Source: an uncultured virus (IMG/VR IMGVR_UViG_3300001682_000595)
Taxonomy: Duplodnaviria > Heunggongvirae > Uroviricota > Caudoviricetes
IMG/VR virus record: IMGVR_UViG_3300001682_000595
Length of the DNA stretch: 64,000 nucleotides
Strand: one strand, 5' to 3'
The position numbers and the translations under genes are program-made. A model generated the notes under the pieces. It had not been told where the DNA came from. It made no database searches and worked only from the letters and a program-made list of their open reading frames with translations. Of this stretch, positions 10,882 to 53,821 are shown one piece after another; the first letter of the stretch is position 1; the number at the start of each line of letters is the position of its first letter.

Positions 10882-12120
10882 TTGAAAAGGCTGTGTTTTG
10901 GTACATTTGCAACTGTTCTGAAAATATGCATGGCAAAAAGAGTTACGCAGAAGCGGCTATGCGGTACCATACTGCTCTCTATTGCGCCCGATTATGATAT
11001 TCGTAGCGATGATGGTACTGTTTCAGATTTGATACTTGGTAAAAAAAATCTATCGCCCTATGTGACTGATGTTGCTCCGACAGCGGATGCTCGTGCTGCT
11101 TCAAATTACTTTAAGCAAAACATCCTTCCCTTGTTGGATAGCAACAAAAAGAGCCTCATCGTTCTTGCGTTGAAGGACATCATTGCTTCTGATGACACAA
11201 TTGAGCCAGACACAGTTGTTGAAAAAGTGAATGACATGACAAAGAAAAATATCGCAGGACGCGATGCTTTTGTTCTGGAGGATTTTCTCGCCGGAATTTT
11301 TCTATATACAGCAGTCAATGTTGAAAACAGAAATTGTGAAGAAAATGTAAAAAAGATAACTGACGAGTACATACAATCTTTTGAAGCTCAAAAAACGAAT
11401 ATAAGCTTCCTTACGGCATATAGCAGATTCTCTACGGAGACAGCCGATGAAATTGCGATTGACACTCACTCATTAGTGCTTTTAGCAGAAACTGGGGGTA
11501 AGTGTCAAAAATGCGGTAGGTTTTTGGGTATAAAAAAAGAAGGCAACGACGTTAACTACGTTAAGGTCGTCCACCTTTCCGAAATCGATGACGTTGTTCT
11601 ATGCGTTGATTGTGAACGCGAAATGCGGAATGCTTCCAAAGAAGAAAAACTGGCTTTGCTTTCGGACAAGCATAACTTGGAAAATCTTATTGCAGCAAGG
11701 GATGCAACGTCACGATATGTGTTAGAAAAGCAAATTGAATATGTGCTTCGTGAAGTCCAGTTGATGGATGTTACTGACGATACACGACTCAAAATTGAAC
11801 CTATAAAGGTTGAGAGAAAAATCACTGAAAAGCGGTTGAAAGAGCGGGTGCTTTTTGATGTCAGGCAGTTGTACGAAGGCGTCAATAGTGCATTAGATCG
11901 ATTATCCGGGGAAAACAAACTGAATGTAGACAGATTTGCCAGGAGCGTTAAGAGGATGTATGAGGATGCAAGCGAAAAGCTGACATCCCAAAGCGATATT
12001 TACAACCTGCTTGCTGATACATTGTTCGAAAAAACAAGCCGCAAATATAGAGAAGCCTGCAAGATAATAATCTCCTATTTCGTGCAAAGGTGTGAGGTGT
12101 TCGATGAGATTGCCGAATAA
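10882..12120 (+). CDS. lmuA: Lamassu/ABC-three-component effector (unknown N-terminus, HNH-like Zn finger, ABC-3C C-terminal domain)
   Basis: C-terminal IISYFVQRCEVF typical of ABC-3C CTDs; CQKC...CVDC; coupled to a middle component and a DUF2326 ATPase. Confidence 0.75.
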   Translation: MKRLCFGTFATVLKICMAKRVTQKRLCGTILLSIAPDYDIRSDDGTVSDLILGKKNLSPYVTDVAPTADARAASNYFKQNILPLLDSNKKSLIVLALKDIIASDDTIEPDTVVEKVNDMTKKNIAGRDAFVLEDFLAGIFLYTAVNVENRNCEENVKKITDEYIQSFEAQKTNISFLTAYSRFSTETADEIAIDTHSLVLLAETGGKCQKCGRFLGIKKEGNDVNYVKVVHLSEIDDVVLCVDCEREMRNASKEEKLALLSDKHNLENLIAARDATSRYVLEKQIEYVLREVQLMDVTDDTRLKIEPIKVERKITEKRLKERVLFDVRQLYEGVNSALDRLSGENKLNVDRFARSVKRMYEDASEKLTSQSDIYNLLADTLFEKTSRKYREACKIIISYFVQRCEVFDEIAE

Positions 12121-12343
12121 AGTAACATCCTATTCAAACAGCGTCATTGCTCGTTTCCCTGACATCTTAGAGGCATTGACGCAGAGAAATATGTCCCCTA
12201 AAGAGCTGTTTGAGCTTACCACGTCAGGCAAAAAGGATATGGGCGATTTTCTGAGTGCCTTAGACTGCCTGTTTGCTTTGGGAAAAATTGAAATAATCGA
12301 GGAAGGGAGGGTACTACGCTATGTTGACAGAAATTCAAAGTGA
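12104..12343 (+). CDS. lmuC: ABC-3C middle component (LmuC-like)
   Basis: MRLPNKVTSYSNSVI...FLSALDCLFALGKIE; small ORF overlapping both neighbours. Confidence 0.75.
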   Translation: MRLPNKVTSYSNSVIARFPDILEALTQRNMSPKELFELTTSGKKDMGDFLSALDCLFALGKIEIIEEGRVLRYVDRNSK

Positions 12344-13958
12344 TAAGTTTGCGCCGGAGCATCAAACCATCCGCTTTAAACCTGGCCTTAATACGGTTTT
12401 AGGCAGTGCGGGCGGCAGCAATGCCATCGGCAAATCAACATTTCTGTGGATTATTGACTATGCATTCGGTGGCGAAAGCTACTACTCCCTGTCGGATGAT
12501 ATTAAAAAGGAAATAGGCCCCCATACCATCTATTTCACTCACCAATTTGAAGAACAGCCCCATTACTTTTACCGGAGTACCGATAATCCTAAAAATGTTT
12601 ATCGGTGTGATAAGGATCACCATTTCATTGCGAAATTGACGCTGGACGAATTCCGGAGCTTTCTCTTTCAGGAATACAAGGTTGGGCTGCCAGCTCTCAC
12701 ATTTCCGGAAATCGCAGAGCGTTACTTTCGTATTTATGGGCGTGAAAATACACTGGAAAAGTATCCTCTGTTGGTAAAGCCCCGGGAACAGGATGAAAAA
12801 GCCGTTGATTTTCTAATGAAGCTGTTTGGTCACCACAATATTCTAGCTGCCATCAAGAGCATGGAGGAAGAACTTGGTGTTAAATCCTCGCAGCTCAAAT
12901 CGCGCCAGCGTCAGCAGGTGGACATCGAGAAAATCGAAATGAATCGGAAGACTATAGAGTCACTGAAGAAAAGACTTCAAAAGCTGATGAAAAACAGTGA
13001 AGAAGCCCAATTAGCGATGTTCGGTTTTGATACTCAGACATTTGAACGGATAACAGTGGCTCAAAAAGAGTTGAACAGTTTTATCCGCAAGCGTAACCGT
13101 CTGCAGTCGCAGCTTAATGCTATTGAGAGTAATATTGCTGACAGTAATCCCGAAACCGCCAGTGAATTTGATTCCTTGGTGCATTTCTTCCCAAATACTG
13201 ATATAAAAGCGTTCGAGGAGATTGAGCATTTCCATAAGAAAATCAGGGAAATTTTGAGTGAAGAGATGGCTCAAGAAATAGAGCGTTTGCAACCGCTTAT
13301 AGGCCACTGTGATATGGAAATCAAACGCCTACAACAAAAAATCGAGGAGTCCGGTTTGGCAAAGGAGATGTCGGAACGAGTGCTCTCTCAATGTGTCAAC
13401 GTGTCAAAAAGCATTGACAGGCTTGAAGAAGAAACTGCTGAGCTGATTCGCCAGAAAGAATTGCAGGAAGCTCGCGCCGAAGCAGAGCACAGGCTGGCAG
13501 AACTGTTACAACAGCAAACCGAAAAGCTGGAAGAGATACAAGACGATATCAATATGCGAATGGAATTAATAAACGGTGTCGTGACCGAGCAACAGGAAAC
13601 AGCGCCTCTTTTGCAAATCACACCGCAAAAGGAAATCTTTTTTGGAACACCCGGTAATACCAGTGAAGGTACTGCGTTCAAGAGCCTTGTGATATATGAT
13701 TTGAGTGTACTTGAATTACGTCCGATTCCAGCACTCATTCATGATTCCAACATTCTCAAGCGTATTGAGGATATACATCTGCAACACATACTGGAACGTT
13801 ATATGGACAGTGGACGACAGATTTTCATTGCATTTGATAAGGCTGATTCTACGACCGCAAAGGCACATGAGATTTTAGAAACTACGGCAGTTTTGCGATT
13901 GTCGGACGGAAATGAGCTTTTCGGCCGTTCGTGGAGCAAGTATGAATCGAATGATTAA
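12321..13958 (+). CDS. lmuB: DUF2326 SMC-like ABC ATPase (LmuB-like)
   Basis: Walker A SNAIGKST, long coiled coil, GTAFKSLV signature region, LIHDS Walker B. Confidence 0.85.
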   Translation: MLTEIQSDKFAPEHQTIRFKPGLNTVLGSAGGSNAIGKSTFLWIIDYAFGGESYYSLSDDIKKEIGPHTIYFTHQFEEQPHYFYRSTDNPKNVYRCDKDHHFIAKLTLDEFRSFLFQEYKVGLPALTFPEIAERYFRIYGRENTLEKYPLLVKPREQDEKAVDFLMKLFGHHNILAAIKSMEEELGVKSSQLKSRQRQQVDIEKIEMNRKTIESLKKRLQKLMKNSEEAQLAMFGFDTQTFERITVAQKELNSFIRKRNRLQSQLNAIESNIADSNPETASEFDSLVHFFPNTDIKAFEEIEHFHKKIREILSEEMAQEIERLQPLIGHCDMEIKRLQQKIEESGLAKEMSERVLSQCVNVSKSIDRLEEETAELIRQKELQEARAEAEHRLAELLQQQTEKLEEIQDDINMRMELINGVVTEQQETAPLLQITPQKEIFFGTPGNTSEGTAFKSLVIYDLSVLELRPIPALIHDSNILKRIEDIHLQHILERYMDSGRQIFIAFDKADSTTAKAHEILETTAVLRLSDGNELFGRSWSKYESND

Positions 13959-13977
13959 GCATAGGAGGATCTAAAGT

Positions 13978-16287
13978 ATGGCTGCAATCAATGATTTACT
14001 GCGGCAAATCCCTGACGCATCTTTACGTAGCCGATTGGAACAGGAATTTGCCCGCCTATCTAAAAATAAAAAATTCGGACTTGTATTCGAGGAGCATATC
14101 CCTGAATGTACGCCGCTTTACGATGTTGCTGTTAAACGTGGTTCAACCGTTGCACGAAAAACTGGCCATATCAATGATATTTATACAGTGGTGAAACTGA
14201 ATGGTGATACCGCCCTTTGCCGTAACAAGGCAACAGGCGATACAATGACCATCCCGCTTACGGAGCTTGTTTCGGTTGCTCAGTTCGGCGAACCGATATT
14301 TCCCATGCTCCAGCCGATTGCTTCTGTAGAGAAGGCCCCTGATAGTAGCTTATGGCATACTCTCATTGAAGCAGACAACTACCATGCTCTTCAGTTGCTG
14401 GAATACCTATACCCAAAGCAGGTAGATTGCATTTATATCGATCCACCATATAATACCGGTGCGCGGGATTGGAAATACAACAACGACTATGTGGATTCCT
14501 CTGATAGCTGGCGCCATAGCAAGTGGCTGTCCATGATGCAAAAACGGCTGAGGATTGCAAAGAGAATTCTTGCCGATGATGGTGTTTTGATTACAACAAT
14601 TGATGATAACGAATATGCACATTTATGGGTTCTTCTCCATGATATCTTCCCCAATCTAACTCATACTTGCGTAACTATTCAGCATAATCCCGGTGGAACA
14701 CAGGGTAAGAAATTCTCTGTCACACACGAATATGCAATCTTTTCATACTCGGCTGACAGTATAATTTATCGCAAACAACATACCGGAGGCGATGTGTATA
14801 ACCTTAGACGTTGGGGAAGCACATCAGGGCGTTATGAAGGTGCGACGTGCTTTTACCCAGTAATATTGGATTCAAACTATAATATTATCGGTTTTGGTAA
14901 TTTGCTTGATAAAGAATTACATCCAACAGCACAAGTGGAACATAATGAGGACGGGACAATCTCTGTTTGGCCTATTGATAAAAACGGCATTGAGAAGAAG
15001 TGGCGATACGGACGTGACACCGTAGAATCCGTAAAAGAGCGGATGTTCATTGAAAAACGAGGAAATCGCATAGAAGTGATTCTTCGTAGAGAAAGCGAGC
15101 CGCCAAAAACTGTTTGGACGGATGCGTTGTGTAATGCTGAAGCACATGGTACAGATATGATTAAATCCATACTTGGCGGTGGGTTCTCATATCCTAAATC
15201 ACTCTATGCAGTTCATGAAGCATTGACATTTGCTGTATCTGGCAAAAAAAACGCCCTCATCGTTGACTTTTTCGCCGGTAGTGGCACTACGCTCCATGCT
15301 GTAAACCTGCTGAATGCTGAAGACAATGGCAACCGTCGTTGTATTTTAGTAACGAATAATGAGGTATCGGATGCTGAATCAAAAGCCTTACAGAAAAATG
15401 GTTATCAACCCGGTGACCCCGAATGGGAAAAGCACGGTATTTGCCGTGCGGTAACTTGGCCGAGGACAAAGTATAGCATCCTTGGCAAGCGTGATGACGG
15501 TACAGTCTTGACAGGCGATTACTTCACAACCCTGACTGAGACAAAAGAAATTGAACGCTCATTCTATCAGCTTGGTTTTGTGGAGAACCCCGCAGAACTA
15601 ACAACCAGTGCTAAAAAGCAGCTTGTTTCTTTGCTTCGCGGTAAGGATGGAAAGGCAGAGCTGCCACAAACATTGGTAAAAGCAGATAGTAAATTCATTG
15701 TTTCGGATAAACATTCAACGTCGATTTTATTTGATGTAAATGCGGTTGACGAGTGGTTGGATGCGCTGGAGAATCAAGATCACATCACAGAGTTTTACAT
15801 AGTGGTAAAAGAAGCGGCGGTATTTAAAGAAATCAAAGCGAGGGTTTCCGATTTGCTTGGCCCTATCAATGTAACATCGCAAGTTAAGCGTCCTATGAGC
15901 GAAGGCTTTTCTGCCAACGTCGAATATTTCAAGCTGGGTTTCTTGGATAAAAACAGCGTGTCGTTGGGCAGACAGTTCCGCGAAATATTGCCGCTGCTTT
16001 GGCTAAAGTCGGGTGCAATCGGCAGGAGGCCGGAAATAAGCAGCGATGAGGAACCGGAGATGTTAATTCTCCCCCAGAACGGCTTTGCGGTTTTAGTTGA
16101 TGAAACAAAATATGCGGAGTTTGCCGAAAAGCTTTCGGAAGAGGATAATATCAGAGTGGTCTATTTTGTGACTAACTCCGAGGAGGCCTTTCGCGAAATG
16201 ACTGCTGGGATAAAAGCAAATAACACATACCAACTATACCGCGATTACATTGATAACTTTGTATTGGGAAGCAGGAGGGATTCATAA
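13978..16287 (+). CDS. mod: type III-like N6-adenine DNA methyltransferase (Mod)
   Basis: IYIDPPYNTG (motif IV) precedes DFFAGSGTT (motif I), the beta-class order; adjacent to Res. Confidence 0.9.
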   Translation: MAAINDLLRQIPDASLRSRLEQEFARLSKNKKFGLVFEEHIPECTPLYDVAVKRGSTVARKTGHINDIYTVVKLNGDTALCRNKATGDTMTIPLTELVSVAQFGEPIFPMLQPIASVEKAPDSSLWHTLIEADNYHALQLLEYLYPKQVDCIYIDPPYNTGARDWKYNNDYVDSSDSWRHSKWLSMMQKRLRIAKRILADDGVLITTIDDNEYAHLWVLLHDIFPNLTHTCVTIQHNPGGTQGKKFSVTHEYAIFSYSADSIIYRKQHTGGDVYNLRRWGSTSGRYEGATCFYPVILDSNYNIIGFGNLLDKELHPTAQVEHNEDGTISVWPIDKNGIEKKWRYGRDTVESVKERMFIEKRGNRIEVILRRESEPPKTVWTDALCNAEAHGTDMIKSILGGGFSYPKSLYAVHEALTFAVSGKKNALIVDFFAGSGTTLHAVNLLNAEDNGNRRCILVTNNEVSDAESKALQKNGYQPGDPEWEKHGICRAVTWPRTKYSILGKRDDGTVLTGDYFTTLTETKEIERSFYQLGFVENPAELTTSAKKQLVSLLRGKDGKAELPQTLVKADSKFIVSDKHSTSILFDVNAVDEWLDALENQDHITEFYIVVKEAAVFKEIKARVSDLLGPINVTSQVKRPMSEGFSANVEYFKLGFLDKNSVSLGRQFREILPLLWLKSGAIGRRPEISSDEEPEMLILPQNGFAVLVDETKYAEFAEKLSEEDNIRVVYFVTNSEEAFREMTAGIKANNTYQLYRDYIDNFVLGSRRDS

Positions 16288-18795
16288 ATGAGAGATACAC
16301 TATTTCCATTTCAGGAAACGGCTCTTTCCGAATTGCACGAAAAAATTAATAAGGCGCACTTGATGTGGAGCGAACGTGACCCGCAAGTGATTTCATTTTC
16401 CGCGCCTACCGGTTCAGGCAAAACCATGATCATGACCACACTTTTTGAAGAAATTCTGTATGGAAGTGCAGATAAAATCGGTGAGCCGGATTCGGTGTTC
16501 ATTTGGCTTTCTGATTCACCTGAACTCAATGAACAAACACGGCTGAAAATTGAAAGCAAGTCTGATAAAATCCGTGTGCGGGATTTAGTGACTATCGATT
16601 CAACCTTTAGCGCCGAGTATTTTGAGGGCGGCCGCATTTATTTTCTGAACACACAAAAACTCGGTTCTGACAAGCTGTTGACAGGAACATCTGATACACG
16701 GCAGTATTCCATCTGGGAAACACTCACTAACACTGCCAGACGTAACCCAAAGCAGTTTTATGTGGTGATTGATGAGGCGCATAGAGGCACATTCACATCC
16801 GTTCAAGCGGAGAACAAGGCACAGTCCATCATGCAGAAATTCATTAAAGGCAGCAAGGACGACGGGCTCTGCATTATGCCTCTTGTTATCGGTGTGACAG
16901 CAACACCCCAGAGATTTGATAACTTAATCGCCGGAACGACATCGACAGTACAAAAAGTCATCGTTCCGCCTGAGCAGGTTCGTGAGTCCGGGCTTTTAAA
17001 GGACAGAATCATTATTCACTACCCAGATATTCAACTGAGCGCCGATATGACCATGTTTAAAGGAGCAGTGGATAATTGGCTCAAAAAATGTGCTCACTGG
17101 AAATCCTACTGTGAACACGAAAACGAAAAAATGGTAAATCCCATTCTTGTTGTTCAAGTCGAGGACGGAAACGAACGCGAAGCAACACATACTGATTTAG
17201 GGGCTTGCATTGATTTGCTTGAGGAAGCTCTGGGACGCAAATTACTGCCCGGGGAAGCGGTACATACATTTAATGACCGCGGCACTCTTAAAGTGCGTGA
17301 CGTTGAGATTCAGCAAATTGAAGCCTCCCGAATTGAGGAAGAGGAAAATGTGAAGGTCGTGTTCTTCAAAATGAACCTTTCCACAGGTTGGGACTGCCCG
17401 CGCGCTGAAACGATGATGTCCTTCCGCAGTGCGCAGGACTATACTTATATTGCGCAGCTTTTGGGACGCATGATTCGTACTCCCTTGGCAAGAAGAATTT
17501 CCTCCGATGCTGAGCTTAATAGTGTAAGTCTGTTTCTTCCGTACTTTGATGAAGATACAGTGAAAAATGTGGTCAATGCTCTACGCGACAGCGAAGCAAT
17601 TATTCCTACAGAAACAGGTACTAATAAAGAGCTTGTTACACTTGGTCGCAATCTTGCCTATGCTGATGTGTTTGATGCAATGGATAAACTTATCACATAT
17701 CGGGTGGATTCGTCCCGCAAGCAGGCGCCGCTCAAATTGTTAATACAGCTTTCCCGCGCGCTGACAATGGACGGTATTGACTTGGGGGCACAGAAAGCTG
17801 TAAAAAATGCGGTTTTATCAAAAATGGATGAGGAAATCGCACGAATAAAAGAAAGCGGAGACTTTGACGGTCGAGCGGCTGCAATCACCGGATTTCCTCT
17901 TGGGACGCTGATATTTGAATATGGAGACAATGCCATTTCCTTCGATGAGACGACACAGACTATGACGGTATCCGAATTTGATATTTCCCGGCATTTTGAA
18001 CAGGCCGGAAAGCTCTTGGGAGAGGGCTTGCATAAGGAGTATTGGATTCGGCACAGTACCCGCGACCATATCGATATAAAAAAAGAAATTATTGTTCTCA
18101 CAAGTGATACGGACGCTATGGAGCGGATAGATGCCTATGCGGAGAAAGAATTTATTAATCTTTATGAAAACAACAAGCGCGCCATCGCAAAGCTGAACGA
18201 AGCACGAAAGATTGTCTATGAAAGATTAATCAATGCTTCAGCCCAACCGATAGCTGTACCGTGGGTATTGCCGGATTCAATCGATTTCTCTGTATCGGAT
18301 GATAGCATTAAGCTTGAACAGCACCTCTTTTGCTCTGAGGACGGGATATTCCAAGCAACGCTGAATCCCTGGGAAAGCGGAGTTGTTGCAGAAGAGCTGA
18401 ACAATGGTGCTGTTTGCTGGCTGCGCAATCTCGACCGTAAAAAATGGTCACTTGAAATCCCGTATGAAGTCGGCGGTATAACCACTTCCATGTTCCCGGA
18501 TTTAGTGATTGTCCGTGCCGACGCACAAGGGTACATTTTTGATATATTGGAACCGCATGACCCAAGCCGCAAGGATAATTACCCCAAGGCAGTGGGCTTA
18601 GCGAAGTTTTCAGAGAAGCATTGGGATGTTTTTGGACGGATTCAGTTGATTCGACAAAAACGAGGAGTAGATGGCCGCGACCATTTTTATCGCCTCGATA
18701 TGTCGAAAACGCCTGTTAGAAATAGAGTGCGCGGCATTACTTCAAATGAAGAACTTGATAGAATTTTTGATGAAAATGCTGAGCGAGAGGATTAG
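16288..18795 (+). CDS. res: type III-like restriction helicase/endonuclease (Res)
   Basis: APTGSGKT, IDEAH, TATP, GWDCPRA, QLLGR; C-terminal FPD...ILEPH nuclease. Confidence 0.88.
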   Translation: MRDTLFPFQETALSELHEKINKAHLMWSERDPQVISFSAPTGSGKTMIMTTLFEEILYGSADKIGEPDSVFIWLSDSPELNEQTRLKIESKSDKIRVRDLVTIDSTFSAEYFEGGRIYFLNTQKLGSDKLLTGTSDTRQYSIWETLTNTARRNPKQFYVVIDEAHRGTFTSVQAENKAQSIMQKFIKGSKDDGLCIMPLVIGVTATPQRFDNLIAGTTSTVQKVIVPPEQVRESGLLKDRIIIHYPDIQLSADMTMFKGAVDNWLKKCAHWKSYCEHENEKMVNPILVVQVEDGNEREATHTDLGACIDLLEEALGRKLLPGEAVHTFNDRGTLKVRDVEIQQIEASRIEEEENVKVVFFKMNLSTGWDCPRAETMMSFRSAQDYTYIAQLLGRMIRTPLARRISSDAELNSVSLFLPYFDEDTVKNVVNALRDSEAIIPTETGTNKELVTLGRNLAYADVFDAMDKLITYRVDSSRKQAPLKLLIQLSRALTMDGIDLGAQKAVKNAVLSKMDEEIARIKESGDFDGRAAAITGFPLGTLIFEYGDNAISFDETTQTMTVSEFDISRHFEQAGKLLGEGLHKEYWIRHSTRDHIDIKKEIIVLTSDTDAMERIDAYAEKEFINLYENNKRAIAKLNEARKIVYERLINASAQPIAVPWVLPDSIDFSVSDDSIKLEQHLFCSEDGIFQATLNPWESGVVAEELNNGAVCWLRNLDRKKWSLEIPYEVGGITTSMFPDLVIVRADAQGYIFDILEPHDPSRKDNYPKAVGLAKFSEKHWDVFGRIQLIRQKRGVDGRDHFYRLDMSKTPVRNRVRGITSNEELDRIFDENAERED

Positions 18796-18853
18796 CTTCT
18801 GATGGGGACAGCCTTTCTGCAGTAAATAATAATTGATAATGGAGGATTTCGTT

Positions 18854-20596
18854 ATGTCGTTTCAAACGCCGCTAACTATCTATGAGGTTATAACAGATAT
18901 TCATACGAAAAAGTATCTATTGCCGTCCATACAAAGGGAATTTGTATGGAGTCAAGAGCAAATCAAAAAGTTGTTTGACAGCCTTATGCGTGATTATCCT
19001 ATCAACGCATTTTTATTTTGGAAGGTTCCGAAAGAGAAGGCGTCTGACTTCAAATTCTATGAATTTTTGCGAGATTATCACAAAAAGGACAATCGTCACA
19101 ACCCAAAAGCAAATATTAGCGGCAGCGACGATGTTATGGCAGTGCTGGATGGTCAACAACGGCTGACATCACTTTATATCTCCTTGAAAGGTACATATGC
19201 TGATAAGCTGCCCTATAAACGCTGGGACAATCCCCAGGCATACCCAAAGAAAAAATTATATTTGAATCTGCTTTCAAGGCCGGAAGATGAGGACTTTGAA
19301 TATGATTTTGAGTTTCTAACCGATACGGAAGCGAAAGCGAATGATGATAACCATCACTGGTTTCCTGTCGGCAAAATACTGGATTTAAAAGAACAGGACG
19401 AGGTGAATGATTACCTGCTTGAGTCGGGCTTATTATCAACTCCCGATAAAGAAAAAGGGAAATTTGCGAATCGAGCCTTATTCAAGCTACATAAGGTAAT
19501 CCATGTAAATCCTATAATCAGTTACTACTTGGAGCAAAGTGCGGAACTCGACAAGGTGCTGAATATTTTTATTCGCGTAAACAGCGGAGGAACTACTCTC
19601 AGTTATTCCGACCTCTTGCTATCTTTTGCAACGGCACAGTGGGAGAATCGGGATGCCCGTGAGGAAATAAATGATTTTGTCGATGAGATAAACGAAATCG
19701 GGCATGGCTTTAACATTAACAAGGATGCTGTCCTGAAAGCATGTCTCGTTTTGTGTGACATGGAGGATATCACATTTAAGGTGGATAATTTCAACCGCAC
19801 CAATATGCTTAAAATAGAAAGCGAATGGGATAACATTACAAAGGCAATCCGTGATGCACTGACTCTGATTAGCAGCTTTGGATTCAGTCGGGAGAACATC
19901 ACATCAAATAACCTGATAATCCCGGTTGCCTATTACTTGAAAACTATTGGCTTACCAAACAACTTTGAAATATCCACTTCAAGGATTGAGGATAGGCGCA
20001 ATATTAAACAGTGGTTTGTATCTTCACTGCTTAAACGAGTATTCAGTTTTTCACCCGACGGTGTATTAAAGCCGGTTCGAGATATAATCAAACAATACGG
20101 ATCAAACGGATTCCCATTGGAAAAAATCATTGAACGCTTCAAAGGCACAAACAGAACTCTGCAATTTACCGAGGACGATATAAACAATCTGCTGTATTCG
20201 AAGTACGGGCAGGGTGATACTTTGGTAATTCTTTCAATATTATACCCCTGGGCTGATTTGCGGCACAATTTTCATGTCGACCATATATTCCCCAAAAGTG
20301 AATTTACTCCCAAGCGGCTGGCTGCCAAAGGCGTCCGCCAAAGCAAAATAAACGATTTTATCGAAAGCTGCAACTATATTGGCAATCTGCAGTTATTGGA
20401 GAATATCCCCAATATTGAAAAGAAGGCTATGGATTTTGATAAATGGCTTAGCAAAAAGGTTCCTGCTGGTGAACTTGCAGATTATAAAAAGAAACACTAT
20501 ATACCGGATGTTGATTTGTCATTTGGTAATTTCGATGTCTTTCTTGAGGAAAGAGAAAAACTGTTACTTGAAAAACTTAAAAAGGAGTTACAGTAA
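18854..20596 (+). CDS. GmrSD-like restriction protein (DUF262 + DUF1524/HNH)
   Basis: LPSIQREFVW, LDGQQRLT, F.RVNSGG, HVDHIFP, IGNLQLL. Confidence 0.88.
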   Translation: MSFQTPLTIYEVITDIHTKKYLLPSIQREFVWSQEQIKKLFDSLMRDYPINAFLFWKVPKEKASDFKFYEFLRDYHKKDNRHNPKANISGSDDVMAVLDGQQRLTSLYISLKGTYADKLPYKRWDNPQAYPKKKLYLNLLSRPEDEDFEYDFEFLTDTEAKANDDNHHWFPVGKILDLKEQDEVNDYLLESGLLSTPDKEKGKFANRALFKLHKVIHVNPIISYYLEQSAELDKVLNIFIRVNSGGTTLSYSDLLLSFATAQWENRDAREEINDFVDEINEIGHGFNINKDAVLKACLVLCDMEDITFKVDNFNRTNMLKIESEWDNITKAIRDALTLISSFGFSRENITSNNLIIPVAYYLKTIGLPNNFEISTSRIEDRRNIKQWFVSSLLKRVFSFSPDGVLKPVRDIIKQYGSNGFPLEKIIERFKGTNRTLQFTEDDINNLLYSKYGQGDTLVILSILYPWADLRHNFHVDHIFPKSEFTPKRLAAKGVRQSKINDFIESCNYIGNLQLLENIPNIEKKAMDFDKWLSKKVPAGELADYKKKHYIPDVDLSFGNFDVFLEEREKLLLEKLKKELQ

Positions 20597-20680
20597 ATTA
20601 GAAACAGAGTATGAATGGCTGGCGTATATGGAGCGAATCGCAGATAAATATGCAAACTATTGAAGAGTGGGGTGAAAACT

Positions 20681-22558
20681 ATGCTCGGAGCAATTATTGG
20701 CGACATTGTAGGGTCGCGATTTGAATTCAATAACCACAGGAATAAGGACTTTGACCTGTTCGCGAAAGGCTGTTTTGCTACCGACGACAGCATAATGACC
20801 CTCGCCGTCGCAATGGCAATAATGGAAACTGAAAAAAGCATTGAGCCACCGATAAGTGGTTACGGTGCAAATGGTGACTATTTACAGTTACTTGCCAAAC
20901 TAACGGTAAAATATATGCAAGAAATTGGACGTAAGTATCCGGACTGCGGTTACGGCGGAATGTTTGCGCGTTGGATGTTTAGTGATAATCCGGAGCCATA
21001 TAATAGCTTCGGGAACGGAGCGGCTATGCGCATTAGCCCTGCCGGGTTTGCCGCCCGTACCGAATCGGAGGCCATCAGCCTTGCCGAAGCAATAACCTCG
21101 GTCACGCACAATCATGAGGAAGGTATAAAAGGTGCGGAAGCGACTGCGGTTGCCATCTATATGGCCCGCCATGGCTTTTTGAAAAGCGAAATTAGAGATA
21201 GAATCTCAAAAGACTACTACTCACTTGATTTGTCAATTGATGAAATCCGCACAACATATAAGTTCAATGAAACCTGTCAGGAAACCGTACCGCAGGCAAT
21301 TCAATGTTTTCTCGAATCAGCTTCCTTCGAAGATGCGATTCGAACAGCAATTTCGCTTGGAGGTGATAGTGACACCATTGCCGCAATAACTGGCGCGATT
21401 GCTGAAGCGTACTATGGTATAACGGAGGACCTAAAAGAAAAAGCTCTTGCCTACCTGGACGAGGAGCTCCGGGCAATTTACGATGAGTGGACTGCTTTCG
21501 CCCCAACGAGCGATGAGCGATTTAAAGTATTGACGAAGTACATCGGCAAGATTGCCGCAGCGGAATCATGCGGCGATTGGATGATAGACCGCGAGAACGA
21601 CGGAACGCCAGAACACCCAATTCAAATGCCCTTTGTAGGGTACAGCAGACTGGTGATTTCGTTTGAGAAAGAGTTTTACAGCTATTCAGAAGCCCACCCA
21701 GAATTTGAACTGACGCGCTACGGTAAAATCCTCGAAAGGTATGGTTTGAAGTGGGGCGCAGAGGAAATGAGATCGGCGGACGTTCAGAAGCTCGATGAAC
21801 AATGCGTTCTTGCTCTTATTATGGGCTCTATCCGCGCTGAGCGCTTTTGCGATGGCGCATTACTTGGATTTTTCAAGGACGGTTGTATTCTGAAATGGCT
21901 GAAACGTCTGAAAGATATTGACTCGCAGGTAACGCAGAAAAAACTCTCGGAGGTTTACTTTGAGATTGGAGGATTCGGCGGTTATGATACTTACCATCTT
22001 CTGTTTGCCGATAGCAGAGCATTCCTATTCTCAGGAAGATTTATGCCAAAAGCGCGATTCCAGAAGCGATATTCCGTTAGAGAGACACAACAGCTTATTG
22101 CCAAATGGGATAGTATCCATATAGAGTATTGGAAATCTGAGTATACTCAAGATAGGGATATGATAATTTGTGACGGTACTCAGTGGTCACTGTTTGTGCG
22201 ACATGAGGGTACACGCGGACTGATGTATAATGGGGATAATACTTACCCAGGCAACTGGGATGCGCTTCTTACTTTTTTTGGTATTAATTTAGATGATGAG
22301 GATAATTATGAAAAGCCTGGCCGTAAGCCGGGTGAACTCATCTATTGTCGTGTATCATTCAGCGGGGACGGCAGTACATACTATTATCAAACTGAAGATG
22401 AAAGCATTAAGGTTGGCGATCGAGTGATTGTGCCGGTTGGCCCGAACAACGATAAGCGGGTCGCTGTTGTCGAGGGAATTGAATACTTCGAACCGACTAA
22501 AGTTCCGTTTCCTTTAGATAAGGTAAAATACATCATAGAAAAACGACATGATAAATAA
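20681..22558 (+). CDS. ADP-ribosylglycohydrolase multidomain fusion
   Basis: GAIIGDIVGS, TDDS, GNGAAMR, GGDSDT; followed by a DUF6508-like region (RAERFCDG) and two further domains. Confidence 0.85.
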   Translation: MLGAIIGDIVGSRFEFNNHRNKDFDLFAKGCFATDDSIMTLAVAMAIMETEKSIEPPISGYGANGDYLQLLAKLTVKYMQEIGRKYPDCGYGGMFARWMFSDNPEPYNSFGNGAAMRISPAGFAARTESEAISLAEAITSVTHNHEEGIKGAEATAVAIYMARHGFLKSEIRDRISKDYYSLDLSIDEIRTTYKFNETCQETVPQAIQCFLESASFEDAIRTAISLGGDSDTIAAITGAIAEAYYGITEDLKEKALAYLDEELRAIYDEWTAFAPTSDERFKVLTKYIGKIAAAESCGDWMIDRENDGTPEHPIQMPFVGYSRLVISFEKEFYSYSEAHPEFELTRYGKILERYGLKWGAEEMRSADVQKLDEQCVLALIMGSIRAERFCDGALLGFFKDGCILKWLKRLKDIDSQVTQKKLSEVYFEIGGFGGYDTYHLLFADSRAFLFSGRFMPKARFQKRYSVRETQQLIAKWDSIHIEYWKSEYTQDRDMIICDGTQWSLFVRHEGTRGLMYNGDNTYPGNWDALLTFFGINLDDEDNYEKPGRKPGELIYCRVSFSGDGSTYYYQTEDESIKVGDRVIVPVGPNNDKRVAVVEGIEYFEPTKVPFPLDKVKYIIEKRHDK

Positions 22559-22592
22559 GACCATGTTCTATAGAAGCTCTTTGTTTGCGTAT

Positions 22593-22698
22593 ATCGACTT
22601 GTTTCCCAGAACGGATAAAAGCAGAGTAATACTGTGGACATGTTTCCACGAACGGAAAATACCTAAAAAAACACCATCGACCTATTCCCGAGAACGGA
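22593..22698 (+). repeat. three 23-bp degenerate direct repeats reading (I/V)D(L/M)FPRT
   Basis: ATCGACTTGTTTCCCAGAACGGA at 22593, GTGGACATGTTTCCACGAACGGA at 22634, ATCGACCTATTCCCGAGAACGGA at 22676. Confidence 0.9.
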
Positions 22699-22721
22699 CA
22701 AAACGAAAAACACAGTCCAGA

Positions 22722-22785
22722 CATCAAGGTGAGCCTATCGTGCCACGTTGAGACGGTAGTATTGATGACAAGGGTAAAAGATTGA
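22722..22785 (+). other. serine-integrase att junction with an rlmD/rumA 3'-end fragment
   Basis: 22744-22785 reads HVETVVLMTRVKD*, like an RlmD C-terminus; inverted CATCAA/TTGATG at 22722 and 22762 is centred on CA at 22744-45. Confidence 0.75.
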
Positions 22786-22892
22786 GAGAGCTGAAAACCC
22801 TTATATATCAATGCTTTTAGCACACATGGGTGTAAAAGCCATTGAACGAAAAACATGAAAATATCGCTTCGAAGGCAGTATTTGATAGTCAA

Positions 22893-23009
22893 GTGGTCAG
22901 GTTAGATGTCATAGCCCGGCGAGTGGCCGGGTTAGATGTCAGGAGTCGCGAGTGGTCGGGTTAGATGTTTTTTCGGAGTTTTTTGAGGTTGTGTGGTCGG
23001 GTTGGATGT
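22893..23009 (+). repeat. four copies of GTGGYCRGGTTRGATGT (fifth degenerate copy at 23715)
   Basis: Copies at 22893, 22923, 22952 and 22993. Confidence 0.9.
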
Positions 23010-23070
23010 TAGTATAACTATGTGTAGTGATTAAAGAAATCGATAAATCGGAATTTACAGGAGTTTGAGC

Positions 23071-23568
23071 ATGAAAAACATTTATTTAATTGGCGGAACA
23101 ATGGGAGTAGGAAAAACAACTACTTGCCAGATTATAAAAAACAAATTAAACAACAGCGTTTTCCTCGACGGAGATTGGTGTTGGGATATGCACCCTTTTC
23201 AAGTGACAGAGGAAACAAAGCAAATGGTATTAGAGAATATCTGCTTCCTTTTAAATAACTTTATTAAGTGCTCTGCTTATGAAAACATCGTGTTTTGCTG
23301 GGTTATGCACGAACAGACTATTATTGACCATATTGTTTCACGACTTAACACAGAAAACTGTAAGGTTCATTCCATATCTTTGGTATGCAGTGAACAAACA
23401 TTGCAAGCGCGCTTGAGAAAGGATGTTGATGCTGGTATTCGTACAGAAGATGTGATTGGTAGAAGTATAGAGCGAATACCTCTTTACGAAAAATTGAATA
23501 CGTATAAAGTTGATGTATCGAAAATCAGTCCAGAGCAAGTTGCTGATTTTATTATTAGGAACTGTTAA
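23071..23568 (+). CDS. AAA-family P-loop kinase (small-molecule/nucleotide kinase-like)
   Basis: GGTMGVGKTT, FLDGDWCW. Confidence 0.8.
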   Translation: MKNIYLIGGTMGVGKTTTCQIIKNKLNNSVFLDGDWCWDMHPFQVTEETKQMVLENICFLLNNFIKCSAYENIVFCWVMHEQTIIDHIVSRLNTENCKVHSISLVCSEQTLQARLRKDVDAGIRTEDVIGRSIERIPLYEKLNTYKVDVSKISPEQVADFIIRNC

Positions 23569-25381: not shown

Positions 25382-26950
25382 TTATTCTGCCACATCCACC
25401 GTCACGCCGGACTTAAATTCCAAGGTGAATTTGTCCTCGTAGACGGTGACTTTTTCAATTAGCCGCCGGATAAGCGACTCATCGTATTCGGTCAGGGCGG
25501 TGGGCTGCTCCCGAAGGAAGGTGCCCATGTCGGAGATACGTTTTTTCTGTTCATCCCGCCCGGCGCTTTCCAGCTGAAGCTTTTGCTTTTCCTCGCGCAG
25601 GTGGTAAATTTCGTTGCCTACTTTTTCGTAATCCGCATTGGAAGTAGCCAGTTTCAAAAGCTCCGCCTGCAACTCTTTCAATCGCTTGTCGATGTCGGCA
25701 AGGACCTGGTCGTTCCCGTGGCTCAGGACGGTTTCAATGTTGTTCTGAAGCGTCGTAAGAAAGGTGTCCCTGTCGCAAAGCGTTTGGTTAATGGCCTTGA
25801 CCAGCACCTGCTCGATTTGGCTTTCCGGCACGGTGCGGGCGTCGCAGAACAATCCGGTGTTTTCCAGGCGACTGATGCAGCGCCAGACAATGGACTTTTT
25901 GCCCCGGTTGTACCAGTGAATCCGGCGGTAAAACTCCCCGCAAACGCCACAATACACGATGTTCGCCAGACAGTGGCTGCTGCTGAACACCCGGTTCTTT
26001 CCGTTCGGGCTTTTATGGATTAAACGCCGACGCACCAGTTCCTCCTGCACCTGCATGAAAATTTCACGCGGGATGATGGCTTCATGGCTGTTTTCCACAT
26101 AGTATTGCGGGACAAGGCCGTTATTCTTGACCCGCTTTTTTGTGAGAAAATCAACTGTGTAGGTTTTCTGTAATAGGGCGTCTCCGATGTACTTTTCATT
26201 CCGCAGAATCTGGTTGATATTGCTGGTATGCCAGCGTTCTTTGCCCGCGCCGTTTAGGATGCCGTCGGCTTCCAGCCCGCGGGCAATTTTTAGCATGCTG
26301 GCCCCTTCAAGATATTCCCGGTAGATGCGCTTGACGACTTCGGCTTCCTCCGGCACGACCACCAGATGTTTGTTTTCGTCCTTGGTGTAGCCGAGGAAGC
26401 GGGCACAGTTGACCTGAATCTCGCCCTGCTGGTAGCGGTACTGCAGGCCCAGCTTCACGTTCTGGCTCAGGGACTGGCTCTCCTGCTGAGCGAGGGATGC
26501 CATAATCGTCAGCAGGACCTCACCCTTGGAATCCATGGTGTTAATGTTTTCCTTTTCAAAGTACACGGGAATATTCTTTTCCTTCAGCTGGCGGATGTAT
26601 TTCAGGCAGTCCAGGGTATTGCGCGCAAACCTGCTGATGGACTTGGTGATGACCATATCGATATTGCCCGCCATACACTCGTCAATCATGCGGTTGAATT
26701 CGTCGCGCTTTTTGGTGTTGGTGCCGGAAATGCCGTCGTCCGCAAAGATGCCGGCCAGCACCCAGTCCGGGTGACCGTTGATGTAGGCCGTGTAATGCTC
26801 AATCTGCGTTTCATAGCTTGTGGCCTGTTCGTCGCTGTCGGTGGAGACGCGGCAGTAGGCGGCGACACGCAGTTTTGGCTTTTCTTCGCTTTCGTCAGCA
26901 CGTATATGTTTCCTTGCCGGAATCACGGTAATATTTTTACTGACATCCAT
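25382..26950 (-). CDS. large serine recombinase (third of trio, element B)
   Basis: [26 protein letters not shown], zinc ribbon CGVCG. Confidence 0.95.
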
Positions 26951-27368
26951 CTTCCTCCACCTCCTTTTCTATCAGGCTGTAGGCGTATTCCGCCTGCTCA
27001 AAGGGGTCGTCAAATTCCTCCGTTCCTTCGCGCAGGCGAAACGCGGTGGGATAAATGGCCTTTTTCGTTTCTCTCGGCTCCCGGACGCGTCCGAGCTTCT
27101 TCGCCCGTTTGGCGCGTTCTGCTTCGGCGGCCGCGAATATCTCCGGGTCGATGATGGCCGGATAATACCCGTCGCCGAGGTAGCGGGCGTTCCGGAGCAT
27201 TATGCCGATTTCCGCGTGAAAGGCGGTGAGTCCCGCCTTCCGGGCGGCGTTGACCAGCGAATCGCCGGAAAGGTAGGATTGAAACAGCACCCTTACCCGC
27301 TCGGCGGCTTCCCCGTCAATCACGGCCAGCCCGTTTTCAATCCGGTAGCCGTAGGGTATATGGTTCAT
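26937..27368 (-). CDS. small recombinase-domain protein (middle of trio)
   Basis: HIPYGY, ML.NARYLG..YPAII. Confidence 0.85.
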
Positions 27369-28940
27369 TCAAATCACCAGCCTTTCCTTGAGCGTAATGC
27401 CGCACTTCAATTCAAACCCAATTTCCGTGCGGTCATACACATGAACCCACTCCACAAAACGCGCGAACAGTTCTCCGTCAAAGCCCTTCAGCATTGACGC
27501 TTTGGTGGTATACTGCAAAAGTTCGCTGACTTCCATCAGATTTCGGTTGTCGCAGCTGATGAGACGGGAGATGGATTCTTTTTGGCGCTGTATCCGCTCG
27601 GCTTCCCGCAGAAGTTCGTTGTTGCTCTTATTGTAAACGGCAGGCTCAAGGTAGCCTTTGGTCATCAGGCCGACCAGCACCTTTTGCTGCTGTGCGTTTT
27701 CCTCGAGTTTTTTCTCAAGCTGCCCGATACGCTCCAAACTGTCGTCTGCGTTTATCCCGCGCAGGCTGCGGAGGAGGGGCTTGAGTATGGTTTGGTTCCC
27801 GAATATGAGTTTGTTCATCATCGTGACGAAGGCGTATTCGAGGGAGGACTCCGGGATGTATTTCATGGGGCATTCTCCGATGTCCTGAATATGGGTGGCA
27901 CAGCACCATGCGATTTTGTGTCTTCCGCTTGCGTGGATGCGGCGTTTGAACGTGTCTCCGCAGTGGCCGCAGATGATTTTCCCCGAGAACGGGTAGCGGT
28001 TCTGATACTTGGATTGCTGTTTTTGAATGCCTTTTTCTTTGCCGCGCTGTTCTATGACGGCCTGCACGGCCGCAAAGTCCTCGCGGCTGATAATCGGCTC
28101 GTGGTAATCCCGAAGCAGATACTGTTCCTTTTCGCCGTCGTTGCGGTGGCGGTTAAAATTTGAATCGGTGTAGGTTTTCTGAAACAAAACGTCCCCGGTG
28201 TATTTTTCGTTTCCGGCTATTCCGCGAACGGTTGTCGCGGTCCAACGTCCGCCCCTTTTGGTTGGAATACGGCGCTGGTTCAACTCGTCGGCTATTTTCT
28301 GGGTTCCCTTGCCGGACAGGATTTCCGAGAAGATGAATCGGACGGTCTTCGCCTGCGATTTGTTTACGACCAGCATTCCGTCGACGGAATCATAGCCGTA
28401 GGGCGGACAGGTAATTTTATAAGTGCCGTTTTGAAATCGCCGCTGAATCGACCATTTGTTATTCTGCGCGATGGAAGCCGACTCGTTTTCGGCCAGTCCA
28501 CTTAGGATTGACAGCATGAGTTCGTTTACCATTGTCCCAGTGTCCAGGTTCTCCTTCTCAAAATAGATGTAAACACCGAGCTTTTGCATCCTCCGCACAA
28601 GTTCCAGACAATCGGTCGTGTTACGGGCAAAACGGCTGATGGATTTGGTGACGATGAAATCGATATGCCCGTTTTCACAATCGGCAATCATCCGGAGCAG
28701 TTCCGGACGCTTCTCCTTTTTCGTGCCCGTGATGCCCTCGTCATAATAAACCCCGGCAAACGCCCAGGTGGGATTTGCCTTAATGTACGATTCATAGTGC
28801 TCTATCTGCGTTTCAAGGCTTTCCTTTTGTTCGTCGCTGTCGGTGGAGACGCGGCAGTAAGCCGCGACCCGCAGCTTGGGCTGTTCGGTAAGAACGACTG
28901 TATCAACCGCGGTTGGGGCTATTTTCGTTACCTTCTTCAC
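27369..28940 (-). CDS. large serine recombinase (first of trio, element B)
   Basis: [26 protein letters not shown]. Confidence 0.95.
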   Translation of the reverse strand: MKKVTKIAPTAVDTVVLTEQPKLRVAAYCRVSTDSDEQKESLETQIEHYESYIKANPTWAFAGVYYDEGITGTKKEKRPELLRMIADCENGHIDFIVTKSISRFARNTTDCLELVRRMQKLGVYIYFEKENLDTGTMVNELMLSILSGLAENESASIAQNNKWSIQRRFQNGTYKITCPPYGYDSVDGMLVVNKSQAKTVRFIFSEILSGKGTQKIADELNQRRIPTKRGGRWTATTVRGIAGNEKYTGDVLFQKTYTDSNFNRHRNDGEKEQYLLRDYHEPIISREDFAAVQAVIEQRGKEKGIQKQQSKYQNRYPFSGKIICGHCGDTFKRRIHASGRHKIAWCCATHIQDIGECPMKYIPESSLEYAFVTMMNKLIFGNQTILKPLLRSLRGINADDSLERIGQLEKKLEENAQQQKVLVGLMTKGYLEPAVYNKSNNELLREAERIQRQKESISRLISCDNRNLMEVSELLQYTTKASMLKGFDGELFARFVEWVHVYDRTEIGFELKCGITLKERLVI

Positions 28941-39875: not shown

Positions 39876-39952
39876 AATAAAGTTATCCTCCTTTCTCCCC
39901 AGAATCATAGAAAAATCCGGGGAATTCGTAGTGAACTCCTCGGATAATTCTT
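39876..39952 (-). repeat. RIT left terminal inverted repeat (77 bp)
   Basis: Exact reverse complement of 43261-43337. Confidence 0.95.
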
Positions 39953-39982: not shown

Positions 39983-41242
39983 GTGAGCATTATGAACGAT
40001 AGCAACAGTAGCTATTGGAACAAACTAAAATCGGATTTCATGGAATACGTTAAGCGTGAAATCCTGAAACCACAGGGAGAATACAAACGCTATACCAGAT
40101 CTGTGGATTTACTCATAGAGTACGCTGAGGCAAATGGCTATAACGAGTATTCACCGGAAGTTGGCATGGCATTTTATGAATCAGAAAAGGCTCATGGCTA
40201 TAAAGGGTATTCAACGCTTGGGTATCGTCGAGCTGCAATCCGGCATCTTAACGAATTCCTCTATGGTAATAGTTTCTGGCAACGTAAACCTCGTAACGTC
40301 TTTCGTTACCAAACGAGCAAGGTTCCGTTGCAATGCCCCAAACAGTTTTCTGAGGTTCTCGAGCGGTTCCTGCAGACAATACACAAAGAAGGACTGAAGG
40401 ACATTACCGTCAATCAATACCGTGTTGCTTGTACCAAGATGTTGCTGGATTTTGAAGAACAAGGCGTCGCCGGTTGGGAGGACATCGATGCCAAAAATCT
40501 GACGTCGGCTTATATGCGTTCCACAAACAAGTACCATTTCGTTTCGTATTCGAGACGATTGTTTCAGTATTTGCTTGATGCTGGTGTTGTAACAACAAAC
40601 TACACCGGCATCTTGCCGTCAATGTCAAAGCACAAAGCAATACCTTCGGTTTACAGCGAATCGGAAATCAACCAGCTGCTGGAAAGCGTAGAAACTTTTA
40701 CGCCGCAAGGCAAGCGTGATTACGCAATTCTTTTAATTGCGGTCCGATTGGGGTTAAGACAGTCAGACATACGGCTTTTGCGCTTTGAAAATGTTGACTT
40801 TGAAAATGCCAGCGTAAGCCTTATCCAGTTTAAAACCTTGGTTCCTTTGGAATTATCCCTGCCTGATGAAGTTGCAAAGGCTCTACACGATTATATCGAT
40901 AACGGTCGTGAAGAGTCTGATGAGCCGTATATTTTTCTCAACGGATACGGGGGAGCATTGACACAACATGCCGTTTCGCACATAACCTCAAGGCATTTCA
41001 AAAAAGCAAAAATTAATGTCGGTGACCGTCGCCACAGCACTCATGCGCTTAGAATGACTTTTGCAAGTCAGTTGATTGCGGAAAATGTGCCCTACGAAGT
41101 GGTAAGAGTCCTTCTTGGTCACGTCAACCGGGATTCTACCCGCCACTATGTAGAGTTTTCAATTGAGGGGCTGAGATCCTGTGCGCTTGAAGTTCCTGCA
41201 CCCAGTGGTTTGTTTGCACAATATATGGCGGAGGAGGCATGA
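39983..41242 (+). CDS. ritA: tyrosine recombinase RitA
   Basis: GLRQSD, HALR, LGH, HY. Confidence 0.9.
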   Translation: MSIMNDSNSSYWNKLKSDFMEYVKREILKPQGEYKRYTRSVDLLIEYAEANGYNEYSPEVGMAFYESEKAHGYKGYSTLGYRRAAIRHLNEFLYGNSFWQRKPRNVFRYQTSKVPLQCPKQFSEVLERFLQTIHKEGLKDITVNQYRVACTKMLLDFEEQGVAGWEDIDAKNLTSAYMRSTNKYHFVSYSRRLFQYLLDAGVVTTNYTGILPSMSKHKAIPSVYSESEINQLLESVETFTPQGKRDYAILLIAVRLGLRQSDIRLLRFENVDFENASVSLIQFKTLVPLELSLPDEVAKALHDYIDNGREESDEPYIFLNGYGGALTQHAVSHITSRHFKKAKINVGDRRHSTHALRMTFASQLIAENVPYEVVRVLLGHVNRDSTRHYVEFSIEGLRSCALEVPAPSGLFAQYMAEEA

Positions 41243-41245
41243 AAA

Positions 41246-43260: not shown

Positions 43261-43337
43261 AAGAATTATCCGAGGAGTTCACTACGAATTCCCCGGATTT
43301 TTCTATGATTCTGGGGAGAAAGGAGGATAACTTTATT
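43261..43337 (+). repeat. RIT right terminal inverted repeat (77 bp)
   Basis: Exact reverse complement of 39876-39952; contains AAGGAGG near its outer end. Confidence 0.95.
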
Positions 43338-53764: not shown

Positions 53765-53821
53765 TTGCCTTGCTATTATTAATGCTCAGAGGTATCATGT
53801 CCACCCCGGGAGGAGGTGAAA

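Follow-up and report, generated by a model that had tools for sequence, protein, structure and literature searches.

The 64,000-nucleotide stretch of viral DNA analysed here (the window) is temperate-phage DNA from an uncultured virus of the Caudoviricetes (IMG/VR record IMGVR_UViG_3300001682_000595), and it carries an attachment site, attP, for the 3′ end of the host gene rlmD (rumA). To the left of the attP core lie three direct repeats of 23 bp (units 1 to 3), each resembling the left half of attB, the rlmD sequence at which such phages integrate. We favour, with modest confidence, the reading that these units are accessory half-sites of a complex serine-integrase attP, which would be bound by the same module that reads the left half-site of attB. 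A sequence-only reading of this DNA had already taken the repeats to be attB-left arms and offered two choices – arms captured from different hosts, or accessory or decoy sites. The fixed positions, conservation and codon-phase variation described below speak for the second choice, and the fixed positions, sharp borders and sequence identities speak against the first. That reading knew of no description of such an array, and we found none in the literature either.

The units start at 22593, 22634 and 22676 on the + strand, with start-to-start distances of 41 and 42 bp. Unit 1, distal to the core, is the attB-left-like half-site ATCGACTTGTTTCCCAGAACGGA (22593–22615); unit 2, in the middle, is GTGGACATGTTTCCACGAACGGA (22634–22656); and unit 3, proximal to the core, is ATCGACCTATTCCCGAGAACGGA (22676–22698). 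Translated, they give IDLFPRT, VDMFPRT and IDLFPRT, respectively, in two different frames; units 2 and 3 share a frame, with a stop codon between them. The four differences between units 1 and 3 are all synonymous, and of the five between units 2 and 1, two fall in the I/V codon, one exchanges M and L, and two are synonymous. Every unit is followed by GA and then by an A-rich spacer on the + strand (22616–22633 and 22657–22675 between units, and 22699–22717 before the P arm, the left half of the attP core). These spacers contain runs of 4–7 A that recur every 41–43 bp, and a repeat search of the window returned copies of 28 bp that take in the start of the spacer (22593–22620, 22634–22661 and 22676–22703). 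The GAC of each unit lies at a defined distance from the His codon that begins at 22744, at -148 in unit 1, -107 in unit 2 and -65 in unit 3, and together with a fourth GAC in the P arm these motifs form a series (22596, 22637, 22679 and 22720) with steps of 41, 42 and 41 bp. The HVE codons start at 22744, 46 bp past the end of unit 3. The sequence and the repeat search thus agree with what had been reported of the array beforehand, namely its spacing and translations, the use of more than one frame, the mostly synonymous differences, the A-rich DNA in place of the His codon and the position of HVE.

The likeness to rlmD was scored with a weight matrix whose sole input was 39 rlmD left half-sites on the host side (positions -24 to -1 relative to the His codon), all taken from integrated relatives in other genomes. 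Over both strands of the window (~128,000 positions) the units occupy ranks one to three, with unit 2 scoring 30.2 bits, unit 1 20.9 bits and unit 3 17.8 bits; the next best position scores 13.1 bits, and in 20 shuffled windows the maximum averaged 12.1 and peaked at 16.9 bits. Unit 2 lies above the median (28.0 bits) of the very host sites behind the matrix. The degenerate template GANNTNTTNCCNNNNACNGA has three exact matches in the window, all at the units, and a single one-mismatch match elsewhere, compared with an expectation of ~1.09 matches per shuffled window when up to one mismatch is allowed. In a six-frame search of the window, D.FP.T-coding sites occur at the three units and nowhere else, which means that the window does not include the 5′ part of rlmD. 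By these sequence measures the repeats are true mimics of the rlmD attB-left half-site, far beyond chance, and their proposed identity as such is upheld.

Relatives of the phage were collected through recombinase 1, one of two large serine recombinases (LSRs) that it encodes, using the best 80 of 275 confirmed loci in viral contigs and the best 80 of 411 loci in bacterial genomes, plus phage records. These gave 106 HVE junctions, or 92 unique ones after dropping duplicates and short flanks, which were sorted by their translated left flank into 39 with host rlmD (attL or an intact gene), 30 with a DIN-type P arm (a GACATCAA-type sequence at -24) and 23 with other flanks. Individual loci among the relatives are given L numbers. 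The 39 host-flanked junctions all read D.FP.T. directly followed by HVE, with host rlmD on the left and a conserved P′ arm on the right, as expected of elements that target the 3′ end of rumA/rlmD. Across the 92 junctions the left flanks diverge directly 5′ of the His codon, and CAYGTNGAG is common to all.

The attP core of the window spans ~22718–22775 and has the form typical of LSR sites, an imperfect dyad of ~50 bp around a central dinucleotide. Its P arm (22718–22743, +), which includes GACATCAA at 22720–22727, is conserved in relatives, as is the dyad formed by CATCAA (22722–22727) and TTGATG (22762–22767). The centre of this dyad and the point at which the related junctions diverge both predict that crossover occurs at CA (22744–22745, +), the first two bases of the His codon. 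The P′ arm (22744–22785, +) encodes HVETVVLMTRVKD followed by a stop codon, the replacement RlmD C-terminus after integration, and it is this arm that completes rlmD at attL of integrated relatives. To the right of the core, long stretches of the sequence are identical at every base to the P′ arms of relatives, including bacterial attL arms, and to the left the match is to P arms that at attR are joined to host 3′ ends differing from one another. The site has phage genes to either side. Because the window lacks the 5′ part of rlmD, both flanks match phage arms and phage genes adjoin on either side, the site is to be read as P-O-P′, either an intact attP or the joint between tandem copies, and not as a phage–host junction. 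The window copy thus has neither attL nor attR, and the earlier assumption that the array stands beside an att junction with host DNA is not supported. A GenBank phage, PV036457.1, has the same arrangement of three units, P arm and HVE arm, again with phage genes on both sides.

The array recurs at related element ends. In relatives, a unit was called wherever the template matched with at most one mismatch at a distance of over 30 bp from the core, and one to three units are present at 28 of the 30 DIN-type sites (one unit in 4, two in 19 and three in 5), so that the recommended survey of related ends and copy numbers bears the array out. The two exceptions prove on inspection to contain degenerate units (VEQFPRT in L127 and VDKFPWT in L192). 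Units were called at none of the 23 sites with other flanks and at one of the 39 host-flanked sites. Their positions fall into a small number of types: the GAC motifs lie at -65, -107/-108 and -138/-139 or -148 in type A, which includes the window, at -54/-55 and -92 to -94 in types B and C, and at -64/-65 and -114 to -117 in type D. The -65 position of unit 3 thus recurs in relatives of types A and D, and the -138 and -148 variants are separated by one 10-bp indel in spacer 1. If the P-arm GAC at -24 is counted, the spacings across types are 30–31, 39–43 and 49–52 bp, which looks like helical phasing of the units.

Alignment of eight type-A arrays without any motif template gave column entropies of 0.43–0.49 bit in the units, 0.36 in the P arm, 0.34 in the P′ arm, 0.59–0.88 in the spacers and 1.03–1.12 in the outer flanks, and an orthologue of unit 1 is present in all eight. 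The array is nevertheless non-coding, with stops, two frames, and indels of 1 bp and 10 bp among relatives. A coding reading of the open reading frame at 22548–22751 was rejected, since it has no Pfam family and its frame is broken by indels in relatives; Rfam has no match in 22300–23200 up to E=1. When unit columns are sorted by 'codon' position, the entropies at positions 1, 2 and 3 are 0.22, 0.21 and 0.90 bit (18 columns each, with the x codon excluded). The simplest account of this codon shadow would be that the reader of attB-left tolerates the wobble positions of rlmD; an unrelated DNA-binding protein would not be expected to show such a phase. Variation among host rlmD alleles at wobble positions would have forced such a reader to disregard them, and its further sites would consequently be free to drift at exactly those positions. 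Codon-phase variation in non-coding DNA is the main argument for the att-reading module as the binder of the units. The extent of the likeness is also suggestive: in every unit it spans the V/I codon through T, ~21–23 bp, the size of one half of a 40–50-bp serine integrase site, and stops at both borders, so that the neighbouring rlmD codons (Q-P upstream and x-H-V-E downstream) never appear at the units.

Several integrated relatives show to which end the array belongs. At attR, P arms are joined to differing host 3′ ends, and the array accompanies the P arm next to host sequence that varies from case to case; examples are L138 and L141 (type A) and L193, L197, L198, L199 and L201 (type B), which come from several genera. 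In the complete Oscillospiraceae genome that contains L127, the restored rlmD and attL lie at one end of the element, and the other end, at a distance of 8.7 kb, has an array of three units and the accompanying P arm. Because the array abuts differing host DNA at attR, and in L127 stands at the opposite end from attL, these junctions identify it as a conserved part of the P end of the element. The P arm of this small rlmD element in L127 (4300–4960, - strand) is joined to non-HVE DNA and not to an HVE arm. Beyond it is a remnant of ~350 bp of a second element end, with two VEQFP units and a P arm of its own and the rlmD 3′ end that the host had originally. The remnant is an accretion scar, and it consists of a whole element end and not of a loose attB arm.

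P arms of another type, present in some relatives, contain the unit motif itself. In L141 and L162 (junctions 17014, 20458 and 4530) the outer portion of the P arm, at about -30, consists of GGAC.T.TTYCC, and the occurrence of this motif there and in inverted form on the P′ side marks it as the putative recognition motif of the rlmD-targeting systems. In L141 and L162 the motif lies ~8 bp further from the centre than in attB-left, an offset that may represent the attP/attB register shift of these recombinases. An exact search of viral contigs with a 16-mer of the P arm was uninformative: 36 loci were returned, and these were treated as chance matches, as on inspection none had the att region and five had an incidental CACGT nearby; among the loci scanned after this search the sole true site was L001, which was already in the sample.

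On the P′ side, alignment with L136, L140, L151 and L186 reveals a remnant of an inverted unit, ATCGCTTCG (22863–22871, - strand), of which a 15-bp deletion has taken most in this phage; the full unit lies at about +139 in relatives. An inverted unit at +136 to +141 is found at 38 of 90 related junctions, comprising 20 of 39 host-flanked, 12 of 23 other and 6 of 28 DIN-type sites (those with enough downstream sequence). PV036457.1 lacks it. Further right is a second family of direct repeats, four GTGGTCGGGTTAGATGT-like copies (22889–23009, +) spaced by 30, 29 and 41 bp and unrelated to the units. They are conserved in L050, L133, L136, L140, L180 and L186, have a diverged analogue in PV036457.1, and are possibly further sites of the att region. 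We considered whether the GTGGTCGGGTTAGATGT-like repeats are mimics of the P′ arm and rejected this, as local alignments were no better than those of shuffles (p 0.11–0.97).

The recombinase module begins 2.6 kb to the right of the att site, and not to its left, and is encoded on the - strand. Recombinase 1 (522 amino acids [aa], 25382–26950) is 86% identical to the recombinase of PV036457.1 and 66% identical to that of 'rum' prophages of Streptococcus suis, and recombinase 2 (523 aa, 27369–28940) is 37% identical to recombinase 1. Both have the domains of LSRs, Resolvase (PF00239), Recombinase (PF07508) and Zn_ribbon_recom (PF13408), with E values from 2e-11 to 2.6e-35. Between them lies a gene for a 143-aa protein (26937–27368) that weakly matches the DNA-binding recombinase domain (RD) alone and has a local match to residues 180–210 of recombinase 2; neither a catalytic domain nor a zinc ribbon was found in it. 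It has 517 homologues, and among the 120 listed the lengths are 137–161 aa, eight have a precomputed PF07508 match and several are named 'recombinase' by NCBI. That this protein is a candidate reader of the units is speculation on our part. The role of its family in two-recombinase modules appears unstudied.

Put together, these observations suggest the following scheme. The phage targets rlmD (rumA) between DMFPxTx and HVE and has a module of two large serine recombinases and the small RD-like protein, and the right arm of attP encodes a replacement RlmD C-terminus. On the P side it keeps three direct copies of the sequence that is read at attB-left, which with the GACAT of the P arm make a 41/42/41-bp series with members about four helical turns apart. 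An attB-left-reading domain, whether of a recombinase subunit or of the small RD-like paralogue, would occupy the units, and the extra subunits on one face of a bent DNA arm could help to assemble or control the complex, for example at synapsis or in setting the direction of the reaction. Integration would move the array, together with the P arm, to attR. Also in favour of the scheme, a study of the S. suis relatives reports that both phage recombinases bind att probes in electrophoretic mobility shift assays and are required for excision (PMC13651849). In canonical serine integrases direction and partner choice are governed by coiled-coil contacts and a separate directionality factor. A broader proposal, which we offer tentatively and consider rather doubtful, is that a widespread lineage of rlmD-targeting elements in Bacillota uses a multi-protein serine integrase with a higher-order attP, in which phased attB-left mimics, joined in many relatives by an inverted one on the opposite arm, recruit extra recombinase or RD-only subunits that set direction or partner choice and in which the codon shadow arises.

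A number of observations weigh against the accessory-site reading. Large serine integrases, as parts of one account describe them, work on 40–50-bp sites without accessory sites or host factors (PMC11722253). The S. suis rum prophages, whose recombinase 1 is 66% identical, have attR without units, and part of a recent report describes excision of S. suis phage–ICE (integrative and conjugative element) tandems from other strains (Sci Adv 2026); because S. suis attR is without units and S. suis tandems nonetheless excise, the recombinase family needs no array in general. The inverted P′-side unit at least, mostly deleted here and absent from PV036457.1, is on that evidence dispensable. The 39-bp spacing of types B and C fits poorly with helical phasing. 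Positional orthology is no more than modest, in that orthologous units are 0.77 identical compared with 0.71–0.72 for other units, and the sequence logos, having been gathered with the template, carry a bias at its positions. For the 143-aa protein, the assignment of a domain is weak: its PF07508 match (E=0.0031) lies below the Pfam cut-off, its profile finds no chain in the PDB up to E=1, and its AF2 model, from a 22-sequence alignment, has a mean confidence (pLDDT) of 49 and is not usable. Finally, we infer both the binding partner of the units and the effect of its binding. 

Other explanations of the array share much of this evidence. The same recognition evidence would hold if the module binds the units as decoy or regulatory sites – titrating subunits, locking attP or attR against partners, or controlling neighbouring genes – and such a role suits isolated half-sites, which cannot be crossover sites themselves, in an array that adjoins cargo and defence genes. 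We nonetheless regard it as unlikely, since a promoter and terminator scan found neither promoter-like nor terminator-like sites in 22300–23200, and since the 41/42/41-bp register with the P arm and the 10-bp indel suggest that the units and the core cooperate physically. Taken alone, conservation and phasing would fit any DNA-binding protein, so that the units could be sites for a phage regulator, an excision factor or a host architectural protein, with the likeness to rlmD as a trace of their origin. Phased A-rich spacers are typical of sites for bending proteins, and the second repeat family at 22889–23009 shows that further factors probably act at the att region. This account too seems improbable to us, as it leaves unexplained the concentration of variation at third 'codon' positions in non-coding DNA, the P arms built from the unit motif in relatives, and the coincidence with conserved positions of host attB-left (the information contents correlate at 0.52, a value biased by the template).

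The array might instead be a passive scar of integration history, composed of attB left arms captured from successive hosts by imprecise excision or accretion. The units do resemble rlmD alleles that differ at synonymous positions, and tandem accretion at rlmD occurs in L127 and L139. Serine-recombinase exchange at the 2-bp centre, however, regenerates attP exactly, and the units hold the same positions across many elements from different hosts. Scars of accretion would bring neighbouring host or element sequence with each repeat and be irregularly spaced, whereas here the spacing is fixed and the half-site borders are sharp, with a likeness that never runs into neighbouring rlmD codons; L127, which does contain a scar, has the entire end of a second element there. 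GA follows T in 6 of 6 units of the window and PV036457.1, compared with 5 of 39 host sites. Matching the units against host alleles, as had been recommended, upheld the likeness to rlmD through the matrix and went against captured arms, because the units are closer to each other (0.71–0.77, with 0.77 for orthologous units and 0.72 for paralogues in the same phage) than to host sites (0.61); host sites are 0.66 identical among themselves. Nor would passive scars hold entropies as low as those of the units beside flanks of 1.0–1.1 bit. We therefore think captured arms very unlikely. Chance resemblance, or a functionless tandem duplication, has in its favour that short A/T-rich intergenic repeats are common in phage genomes, but the matrix ranks, three exact template matches where about one is expected with a mismatch, and the recurrence at 28 of 30 related sites make its probability negligible.

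The array and core are embedded in phage DNA. Directly to the left of the array is an 11.7-kb block of defence and cargo genes (10882–22558, +) coding for ABC-3C CTD11, DUF2326/AAA, an N6_N4 DNA methylase, a ResIII/SNF2 helicase, a GmrSD-like nuclease, and an ADP-ribosylglycohydrolase fused to DUF6508; PV036457.1 has a different cargo set at this place. Phage replication genes lie to the left of the block on the - strand. To the right of att are small cargo genes, the recombinase module (-), and then lysis and tail genes. Further to the right, perfect 77-bp inverted repeats (39876–39952 and 43261–43337) enclose three tyrosine-recombinase genes (39983–43251) in an element resembling a recombinase-in-trio. 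It sits between two tail/tape-measure modules that face away from each other and derive from two related but different phages (73–75% identity in matching pieces), an arrangement that suggests a rearrangement through, or insertion into, tape-measure genes. The second phage has a serine-recombinase cluster of its own (53816–57010), which encodes a 524-aa recombinase that shares 51% identity with recombinase 2, a 229-aa protein in which Recombinase and zinc-ribbon domains occur without a catalytic domain, and then a fragment with the start of a Resolvase domain; neither HVE nor unit motifs were found near this cluster. Further defence-type genes follow on the - strand (57414–63786); they encode a DUF4357 protein, an ATPase of the AAA_13 type, and a ResIII helicase of 1007 aa that has an endonuclease domain at its C-terminus.

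Genome engineers value large serine integrases for their supposed need of two short sites only. Here a large natural family combines two integrases with a small RD-like protein and conserved, putatively accessory half-sites. If the units are functional sites, they would point to a different kind of control of serine integrases, through site architecture as in resolvases or lambda, and would also account for the way in which elements with a target inside a coding sequence accommodate synonymous differences between hosts. The way the units drift would be a rare read-out, from sequence alone, of the bases to which a recognising protein is indifferent. For annotation purposes, the array identifies the P end of an element and distinguishes attP and attR ends that are intact from scars of accretion.

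In enzymes and core, the system is that of the LSRs of phiC31, Bxb1, A118/LI and SPbeta (SprA), with the combination of Resolvase, Recombinase and zinc-ribbon domains and a dyad core around a central dinucleotide, in a target that lies within a gene for which the phage provides a replacement 3′ end. The half-sites of large serine integrases are described, in part of one source, as being read modularly by two DNA-binding domains, with the second motif 5 bp nearer the centre in attB (PMC11722253). LSR systems are described as needing no more than an integrase and two 40–50-bp sites, whereas here two paralogous recombinases and a small RD-like protein are encoded together, and the core is flanked on one side, over ~150 bp, by conserved and phased attB-type half-sites, with an inverted unit on the opposite side in relatives.

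Among the closest known systems are the streptococcal prophages and ICEs of rum/rumA/rlmD (Phi-m46.1-like phages, the phi-Ssu..._rum group and phage–ICE tandems), which share the target gene and the point of insertion. No repeat array is described in section 7 of PMC13651849 or in the passages of its text found by term searches. The junction of phi-SsuFJNP3_rum reads DLFPNTH directly before HVE, and the streptococcal rum prophages also share the gene order of recombinase, ~142-aa protein and recombinase, with the recombinase 1 identity given above. The S. suis rum prophage record MN270260.1 differs in that its recombinase genes read away from rlmD, and no unit array was found at its right junction.

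Extra copies of a recombinase's own motif on one side of the crossover site are well known among small resolvases, where they lie within ~100–150 bp of it (res sites II and III of Tn3 and gamma-delta, and res site II of Sin and beta). The accessory half-sites of Sin are directly repeated, and a regulatory synapse is assembled with their help. The array shares this one-sided layout of motif copies with Tn3 and Sin, with the difference that binding is predicted here. Small resolvases, of ~180–200 aa with a catalytic domain and a helix-turn-helix, act on two identical res sites in cis and copy their own site, whereas the recombinases here are LSRs of 522–523 aa that would act on unlike attP and attB, and the units copy the partner site, attB-left, and not the adjacent P arm. 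Another parallel is offered by TnpA of the IS607 family, for which part of one study describes cooperative binding to multiple direct subterminal repeats at one element end and a nucleoprotein filament that captures partner DNA (PMC6188088). IS607 TnpA, a small serine transposase, binds DNA through an N-terminal domain and shows little target specificity, and no such protein is encoded here.

In lambda-like phages attP extends over a few hundred bp, and its arms contain repeated integrase sites that are split between attL and attR, so that direction can be set. These arm sites are read by a separate N-terminal domain and are unlike the core or attB. The lambda-type attP belongs to the tyrosine-integrase superfamily; here the units mimic attB-left, the att-linked genes encode serine recombinases, and the tyrosine recombinases of the window (39983–43251) belong to the separate inserted element with its own 77-bp inverted repeats. 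By analogy, the predicted workings of the array are most like those of the resolvase, IS607 and lambda accessory-site systems, and it is a member of none of them, because its enzymes are large serine integrases and its units copy the half-site of the partner.

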